From IMG/VR virus record IMGVR_UViG_2526164693_000022: DNA of 4,340 nucleotides. The stretch is one strand, 5' to 3'. Numbering within the stretch: position 1 is the first letter of the stretch; each line of letters starts with the position of its first letter. This stretch comes from a virus (lineage: Duplodnaviria; Heunggongvirae; Uroviricota; Caudoviricetes). This document shows, piece after piece, positions 3,001 through 4,340 of this stretch. Made by a program: the position numbers.

Positions 3001-4340
3001 CTTTTTCGTTACGCTCTACCATCGCCGTTTCTTTGGCTGTATCGAGGGTAAGGTGGTAGTCTTTTTTCCCTCGCCCATAACCTATTTCCCGTTTCTGGGA
3101 AATAGCTATATAGTCCTGATTTTCAACGAATCCGTACTCTTCAATACGTTCTGTAATCCACGATGCAAAGCGTTTACCTACTCCAAGAAAAGTATGTAAA
3201 TCACGGGCATTAACGAGAAGAGTGGTTTCGTTGGCGATAGTGCCGTTGAATACGGGGATGAGTTGACTGGTCATGATGACCTCCTTATTTGTTTAGTTTA
3301 TAACCGCCAGTTAGTAGCTGGCGGTCGGGTGTCAACTGAGCCAAATAAGAAGCTCTGGGCATATTCCCCTTGCGGGTGTTGTATTACGCCTCTCCACCCG
3401 ACCTTTGTACGGATGTAACTATGCCAAATTGCAGGCATAAAAAAGCCGCAAAGCTATCGGGTGCGGAGACCGCTTATTTGTTCAGTGCGGTCAGTATGCG
3501 ATAGCTCTGGAGGATTTGTCAATCAGCGGAATATTGATGAACGGGTAACGGTAAATGCCTCATCCAGAAAATTAACGCAAATTCGCATCGCAAACTTGCG
3601 TTAATTATCTGAAATATCAAGTTAAATCCCCTTAAATGTTTGGGGCACTATTGGGGCAAAATGTGGTTGTTTGGGGCATATTTGGGGCAAAAAAGAACGT
3701 ATAAAGAACGGTGTAAAATTGATTTCTTCATGGTCAAAATGAGGTGTAACAGATTGAAAAATATATGCTCTTGGACGATCTTCGGTAATTCTGTGTTTTT
3801 AATGCTTCATGGTTTCAATATGTCCGTACATGGAATAATAAAGCACCAGAACTTTAGCCATTTCTAACCACTCCTCGTGTTATCTCTATTCCGTAGCGAT
3901 TCGCTACCACTTATTTAAAGATAAGACGTCCTTTTCAGAGTGCAAATTTCACAACCACTTATTTGATTTATAACAACTTTCACAAGCACGCAATTTTGTC
4001 GCAAAATGACACATTTTTATCTCATCGCGTTTTTTTAATCATAAGAGCGGCTTATGGATAATTATTGGAGATGATATCTATTCTCGCTAAGAAGCTGTTG
4101 CAGGATATTACCAAACGCGGGTAGAAACACGTCAGTTCACTAAGCTTAGTCCCACGTAGCGAAAATATGGCAGCCGCCATACGCCGCGTTAATTCTAGCA
4201 ATATGATGTCTATACCCAGACGGAGGTCAGTAATGGCAAACCATCGAGGCGGTTCCGGCAATTTTGCAGAAGACCGCGAAAGAGCATCAGAAGCAGGTAA
4301 AAAAGGTGGCAAGAGCAGTCACGGCAAAAGCGACAACTAG

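Follow-up and report, generated by a model that had tools for sequence, protein, structure and literature searches.

Genome context of the window

The window, i.e. the whole stretch of 4,340 nucleotides that was analysed, is 99.7% identical over positions 2105-4340 to the right end of Sp5 (VT2-Sakai), a prophage of the 933W type (Stx2) in E. coli O157:H7 Sakai. The minus strand carries, in order, hok/sok, several small genes of the ead/Ea22 type, and a gene for an AntA/AntB-type antirepressor. To the right of the latter, about 540 bp without a credible gene lead to the attachment site, beyond which come the 17 initial codons of wrbA, the host gene that is disrupted, and then ymdF. The coordinates of the features are listed in Table 1.

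The attachment site annotated in the VT2-Sakai and 933W records corresponds to the heptamer GTTTCAA of the window. A comparison of attL and attR of the Sakai record gives CATGGTTTCAACATGTC as the att core. Phage and bacterial sites are identical only in CAT-n-GTTTCAA-n-ATGTC, and because the identity stops there, the exchange falls within GTTTCAA. Judged by its sequence, the right part of the window is the attR of a 933W/Sp5-type Stx prophage in wrbA. In the Sakai and 933W records the int and excisionase genes occupy the opposite prophage end, with the int stop codon 22 bp from the overlap. Therefore, the repeats that are the subject of this analysis are in attR, on the int-distal arm (the P arm in lambda terms).

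The left part of the window is of a different make. Positions 368-2104 (ead/Ea22-like and other small genes) have no match at all to Sakai Sp5 and form a different mosaic module, and positions 1-367, which include the hok/sok block, are only 92% identical to the Sakai copy. Among the complete E. coli genomes and phage records searched, none matches more than 60% of the window at a single location. Because of this and of the mismatch of 368-2104 with Sp5, the window comes, as far as its sequence tells, from a wrbA prophage of mosaic make-up that these collections lack.

Several other features were observed in the intergenic DNA. An Rfam match to sRNA-Xcc1 lies in the leader immediately upstream of the antirepressor gene, with a hairpin between it and the start codon. 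Just outside the repeats lies an inverted repeat with 22-bp arms and a 3-nt loop, for which the folding energy of the RNA is -27.9 kcal/mol (z = -7.4) on the minus (int-sense) strand and -18.1 on the plus strand. Its stem is preserved in phage phi367 despite substitutions, and there is no run of U after it. The inverted repeat may act on transcripts exiting int and attP, as a barrier or a sib-like processing site, or else be an operator that lies upstream of the promoter-like site of the leftward ant operon.

Table 1. Coordinates of features in the window, with the basis of each assignment
Feature	Position	Strand	Basis
hokW/mokW toxin ORF	1-213	-	
sok antisense RNA (hok/sok block spans 1-325)	151-325		Rfam RF01794, 114.9 bits
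AntA/AntB-type antirepressor gene	2645-3274	-	
Hairpin	3303-3325		
sRNA-Xcc1 match	3315-3403	-	Rfam RF02221, 69.1 bits (gathering score 53), E = 1.3e-11
Promoter-like site, leftward ant operon	3522-3493		
Inverted repeat	3565-3611		
Two 31-bp tandem units, one site pair each	3637-3698	+	repeat finder, phage comparison
Arm-type site (predicted), distal pair copy 1, TTTGGGGCA; core word TGGGGCA at 3641-3647	3639-3647	+	pattern search, repeat finder
Arm-type site (predicted), distal pair copy 2, ATTGGGGCA; 11 bp from copy 1	3650-3658	+	pattern search
Arm-type site (predicted), proximal pair copy 1, TTTGGGGCA	3670-3678	+	pattern search, P-arm pairs of relatives
Arm-type site (predicted), proximal pair copy 2, TTTGGGGCA	3681-3689	+	pattern search
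AAAGAACG twice, 11-bp spacing, directly after the last arm site; candidate Xis or accessory site	3692-3710	+	sequence reading, Fels-1
IHF-consensus-like site TTTCAATCTGTTA, one mismatch; candidate	3747-3759	-	consensus scan
Block GCTCTTGGACGATCTTCG; candidate Xis or host-factor site	3767-3784	+	attP alignment
wrbA 5' fragment (MAKVLVLYYSMYGHIET...), disrupted host gene	3811-3861	-	sequence and annotation
att overlap (crossover) GTTTCAA, between phage DNA (left) and wrbA DNA (right)	3812-3818	+	misc_recomb features, attL/attR comparison

Repeats on the two arms of the attachment site

The original prediction described four near-identical direct repeats spaced 11/20/11 bp, and the pattern search places them exactly there, starting at 3639, 3650, 3670 and 3681, all on the plus strand and nowhere else in the window. 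Their distance from the junction, previously given as ~115-165 bp, is corrected to 123-173 bp from the GTTTCAA overlap, inside the right prophage end. A fifth, degenerate copy had also been proposed (3661-3669, ATGTGGTTG). It agrees with the motif at three of nine positions and with the core word at four of seven, and the corresponding spacer in Fels-1 reads AAAAATGACATTT; on account of the poor match and the lack of conservation in Fels-1 it was dropped. With the repeat finder, the true unit is seen to be a 25-nt double site (3637-3661 and 3668-3692, 88% identical, with a period of 31 bp) that contains two TGGGGCA words 11 bp apart and is tandemly duplicated.

The repeat count by itself is only mildly unusual: four matches with at most one mismatch are found in the window against 1.05 expected, and five of 200 shuffled sequences reach four. 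It is the clustering and the phasing that carry the weight. In the VT2-Sakai prophage record (65.5 kb), four of the five exact copies of TTTGGGGCA are in the two att arms, the fifth being inside IS629, and of the copies with at most one mismatch 6 out of 15 are in the arms. The record contains three pairs with 11-bp spacing in its 65.5 kb, none of them more than 175 bp away from the att core.

The repeats are not explained by coding sequence. The plus-strand ORF that overlaps them (3640-3867) had been regarded as an artefact, and this is borne out, because the ORF runs across the att junction into wrbA antisense and because the array varies among near-identical phages (933W, Sakai and Min27) by indels of 31 bp, a length not divisible by three.

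The opposite prophage end was read from two proxies, namely Sakai Sp5, chosen for its 99.7% identity over window 2105-4340, and phi367, which has a contiguous attP. The motif had been expected at that end, and it is present in the Sp5 proxy: the int-proximal end has TTTGGGGCAcgTCTGGGGCA at 1724-1743 of locus L003, on the same strand as the copies in the window. This P' pair consists of TTTGGGGCA and TCTGGGGCA with 11-bp spacing; it lies within the last codons of int, at a distance of 63-88 bp from the overlap. In phi367 the uninterrupted attP on a single molecule has the four P-arm sites, the core, and then the P' pair.

Within int, the P' pair is translated as A-P-x-(M/V/L)-P-(H/Q), and its two 7-mers, identical in sequence, are read in different frames (T GCC CCA and TG CCC CA). 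The synonymous positions of the P' words are unchanged in six of seven phages, and neighbouring codons differ. Because the synonymous positions are fixed and the P arm has the same word in non-coding DNA, the P' words are, on this comparison, constrained as DNA; part of the constraint could be at the protein level, considering that the conserved A-P-x-x-P-(H/Q) is encoded by the pair.

The 3' end of int (L003 1686-1760 and its equivalents in L010-L016) was also viewed from the side of the protein. The C-terminal tail shows little conservation apart from A-P-x-x-P-(H/Q), the peptide that the two P' arm sites encode, and the tail of the integrase seems to be shaped by the constraint on the DNA. 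It is conceivable, though rather unlikely, that occupancy of the P' sites by Int influences the expression of int, in whose frame they lie.

Conservation of the pairs with the integrase

Sp5 Int is a protein of 436 aa with an Arm-DNA-bind_2 domain (PF12167) at aa 7-70 (E = 6e-26; score 90.6 bits, cut-off 22) and the catalytic domain of tyrosine recombinases (PF00589). In the PDB, the matches to the whole Int cover the core-binding and catalytic part only, and the N-terminal 102 residues have no sequence relative there at E values up to 10. The gene neighbouring int encodes a DUF1233 excisionase.

Relatives were picked by tblastn of Int against phage genomes (68% to ~30% identity), i.e. by the protein and not by the DNA word (Table 2). 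In phages with Ints 51-68% identical and at other insertion sites, the pairs are kept on the flanks of the core, and the surrounding DNA is otherwise unconserved. The motif, which had been predicted to recur in related attP sequences, flanks the core as pairs in every related attP examined. The word TGGGGCA is unrelated to the core sequence and is kept across the differing cores at wrbA, yehV, ttcA and the Fels-1 site. In an alignment of six attP sequences, the motif columns are invariant in 26 of 28 cases, against 15 of the 188 other ungapped columns (Fisher p = 8e-21).

Table 2. Arm-type words in phages and prophages with related integrases
Phage or prophage	Int identity	Arm-site layout
VT1-Sakai (yehV)	66%	three P-arm sites at 11-bp spacing; P' pair TGGGGCA + TGGGACA
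Fels-1 (Salmonella; different core)	65%	four P-arm sites (11/20/10) and P' pair
Mulock (Klebsiella)	within 58-65%	two TGGGGCA 11 bp apart in int 3' end; second pair across core, 207-208 bp
CobraSix (Enterobacter)	within 58-65%	one pair per arm, 207-208 bp apart; P' pair in int 3' end
Tritos	within 58-65%	one pair per arm, 207-208 bp apart; P-arm words TGGGGCA and, second, TGGGACA
SP016	within 58-65%	one pair per arm, 207-208 bp apart; P' pair in int 3' end
Yersinia phage vB_YenM_29.18	51%	P' pair kept
Rac-type prophage at ttcA	43%	TGGGGCA/TGGGGGCA pair kept by int 3' end
phiCTX	30-31%	TGGGAAC twice at 11 bp, each side of tRNA-derived core
PAShipCat1	30-31%	(T/C)GTACCA (YGTACCA) pairs, both sides
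MR15	30-31%	GTTGCTGA-like pairs; less clear

The proximal P-arm pair and the P' pair are 206-211 bp apart in all cases (211 in Sp5, 206 in Fels-1), and by this distance the pair 3670-3689 corresponds to the single P-arm pair of the relatives. Because the distance is constant across the phages, 3670-3689 is to be seen, from the comparison, as the ancestral pair and 3639-3658 as its duplicate. Of the conservation that the original prediction asked about, the phasing and the pair layout are kept in related prophages, while the number of repeats varies, with one, two or more P-arm pairs.

A scan of IMG/VR for exact TGGGGCAN4TGGGGCA points in the same direction. Among the 80 loci listed there are 84 instances, and half of these (42) lie within int 3' ends of the 933W family, in antisense orientation, the family being taken as genes whose products are 50-100% identical to Sp5 Int. 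The int-embedded instances are typically at the very edge of the prophage contig, and many others are at contig ends with no int in reach, as expected of P arms. Two loci, L023 and L057, have an uninterrupted attP, with P-arm pairs at -209 and -207, respectively; L023 has two pairs.

When the Ints are only 30-31% identical, the pair-per-arm layout is kept and the words are changed (Table 2). The Pseudomonas phages CF67a and JBD68 have no obvious paired repeats downstream of int, and their attP may lie elsewhere. The identity of the N-domain is 72-80% among the phages with clean TGGGGCA words, with 47-61% in the rest of the protein, and 36-45% in the group with distant integrases. Such a pattern is as expected if the N-domain reads the word.

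The number of 31-bp units differs among close relatives of the window. There are two units (four sites) in the window and in Sakai-type phages, three (six sites) in 933W, and four (eight sites) in Min27; a 310-bp form with three units was found in six of 60 E. coli records, sampled so as to be spread over the 217 that carry the P arm. The expansion leaves the distance between the proximal pair and the core unchanged, and the variable copy number means that not every copy is strictly required. The array might then be a neutral 31-bp minisatellite in which the distal pair, at least, has no function and the proximal pair alone matters. This would agree with the presence of two, three or four units in near-identical phages, with the 310-bp form in about a tenth of the sampled genomes that have the P arm, and with the sufficiency of a single P-arm pair in most relatives. 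Fels-1, however, with a P arm 71% identical, keeps the two pairs and the 20-bp gap despite a diverged spacer, and since L023 and VT1-Sakai likewise retain extra copies (two pairs and three sites, respectively), the extra sites persist over long divergence. The neutral reading, which we consider very improbable, bears in any case on the extra copies only and not on the nature of the word.

A second question is whether the repeats are sites for the DUF1233 Xis, the recombination directionality factor, rather than for Int. The excisionase is encoded beside int and conserved alongside Int in all the relatives, and since the two always co-occur, conservation by itself cannot tell which of them binds. 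Sites for Xis or Cox, too, are typically phased direct repeats on the arm distal to int, and the four repeats of the P arm look like the Xis arrays known from lambda, P22 and L5. Moreover, the Rac homologue XisR, a DUF1233 excisionase, binds attR and shifts an attR fragment, within which its sites were not mapped (PMC4632033). Against this, directionality factors normally bind one arm only, and Xis sites would be expected on the int-distal arm between the Int sites and the core, but the word is also paired on the P' arm and is the most core-distal conserved element of the P arm. The symmetry of one pair per arm suits four Int N-domains, and better-placed Xis candidates are found nearer the core, so that assignment of the repeats themselves to Xis appears improbable.

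These candidates are the two copies of AAAGAACG, of which the first is conserved in Fels-1 and neither in more distant relatives, and the block GCTCTTGGACGATCTTCG. The latter is shared with the P arms of Fels-1, Mulock, CobraSix, SP016 and VT1-Sakai, where it is ~30-45 bp from the core, and it may be an Xis site, a site for a host bending protein, or a promoter directed at the core. At this position GCTCYTGGACGATMTTYG, often followed by TCGATTTTTAAAA, recurs 12-45 bp from the core in P arms of phages with different cores (window 3767-3784; L140 283-311; L011, L012, L016 and L008) and is absent in Tritos. The IHF-like site is the sole match in the arm; with six such matches in the window against 4.9 expected, it is not above chance.

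The third possibility, that the repeats are iterons for replication or partition, or operators for a regulator of the antirepressor operon, was in its iteron form an alternative in the original prediction. Phased short direct repeats are a hallmark of iterons, and the promoter-like site of the leftward ant operon is only ~120 bp from the repeats. The genomic context, on which the iteron or partition-site reading was rejected, speaks otherwise: the origin iterons are annotated in gene O (AP000422 13443-13538), 50 kb away and different in sequence, and no rep or par gene is nearby, the neighbours being the ant operon, hok/sok and wrbA. Furthermore, the word tracks int and the att core and not ant, given that Mulock, CobraSix, Tritos and SP016 have different neighbours, and it is found within int at the other prophage end. 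Iterons or operators are therefore hardly conceivable here.

The reading of the four repeats as arm-type sites on the P arm of attP, for the phage's own tyrosine integrase, is thus left as the very probable one, in agreement with the integrase reading of the original prediction. It is supported by the pairs on both arms, by their family-wide occurrence in attP and by the PF12167 domain of Int. The word flanks the crossover within ~200 bp on both arms and is unlike the core; Int has an N-terminal arm-binding domain; and the sites track the integrase lineage and change where that domain has diverged. From the position and phasing of the words, their presence on both arms, their family-wide conservation, their change in distant lineages and the domain content of Int, all read from sequence, we infer that Int binds them directly and requires them for recombination.

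Under the arm-site reading, Int would be heterobivalent. Its C-terminal core-binding and catalytic domains would act at the GTTTCAA crossover, and its N-terminal domain (PF12167) would bind the TGGGGCA words in pairs with 11-bp spacing on both arms, which here would be two pairs on the P arm and one pair on the P' arm, within the int 3' end. Accessory bending proteins (the DUF1233 excisionase and probably IHF) would bring the arms to the core, and an Int tetramer bound to both arms and core would bridge them into the intasome that performs and directs integration and excision. The ancestral layout would be one pair per arm, ~207 bp apart, giving four sites for four protomers, and in this lineage the P-arm pair has been tandemly duplicated as the 31-bp unit. 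The distal pair, 3639-3658, may serve as an alternative site for one direction of the reaction, or may be redundant.

Comparison with known systems and significance

The lambda arm word is C/AAGTCACTAT, and the lambda P2 site is inverted. The layout described here is similar to that of the lambda attP (P1, P2, P'1-P'3) in having short words unlike the core on both arms, within ~175 bp of the crossover, with adjacent sites spaced 10-11 bp; in the N-terminal arm-binding domain of Int; in an overall attP length of ~265 bp; and in the excisionase gene adjoining int. It differs in the word (TGGGGCA), in the Pfam family of the arm-binding domain (PF12167), in the single orientation and pairing of all the sites, in the location of the P' sites within the int coding sequence, and in the polymorphic copy number on the P arm.

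The attP words of the P2/186 phages likewise differ by integrase group (tgTGGaCa in the P2 type, tgccGCCActt in the 186 type; PMC3448106), and the logic of a pair per arm with switching of the word is as in the TGGGGCA family. In contrast, the integrase lineage, the word and the directionality factor (Cox/Apl versus the DUF1233 Xis) are different, and no expansion of a tandem pair is reported there. Among the Rac-type elements, the IntR/XisR system resembles the present one, in that a TGGGGCA/TGGGGGCA pair is retained by the 3' end of the Rac-type integrase gene at ttcA, whose product shares 43% identity with Sp5 Int; it differs in the insertion site.

The IntBPP-1 subgroup of tyrosine recombinases, which is defined by the DUF3596/PF12167 domain, includes an integrase from an Stx2a phage (Smyshlyaev et al. 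2021, PMC8138268), and Sp5 Int shares that domain. That work classifies proteins, terming the IntBPP-1 members putative integrases, and does not define arm sites; the word TGGGGCA-N4-TGGGGCA and the 206-211-bp spacing are absent from it.

Arm-type sites are a textbook component of lambda-type recombination, and the kind of element is therefore known. What appears to be new is a definition, at the level of sequence, of arm sites for the PF12167 "IntBPP-1" integrases of Stx2 and Stx1 phages, Fels-1 and Rac, for which we found no paper. The literature search, thin on subscription journals so that an earlier mention is possible, returned no mapping of arm sites for 933W-type integrases, no binding or mutational study of this integrase, and nothing relevant that links the word TGGGGCA to an integrase. 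The description obtained is TGGGGCA-N4-TGGGGCA, one pair per arm, 206-211 bp apart, with the P' pair usually in the 3' end of int. It could aid the automatic delimitation of prophage ends and attP in phages with PF12167 integrases, and could guide the design of minimal attP constructs for integration vectors.

The description also offers a starting point for relating site-number polymorphism to the stability of Stx prophages. Apart from the possible feedback at P', it is conceivable, though rather unlikely, that the number of P-arm pairs acts as a tuning knob for integration, excision or maintenance of lysogeny in the Stx phages at wrbA. If this is true, the polymorphism of the 31-bp unit would bear on the stability and spread of Stx phages.
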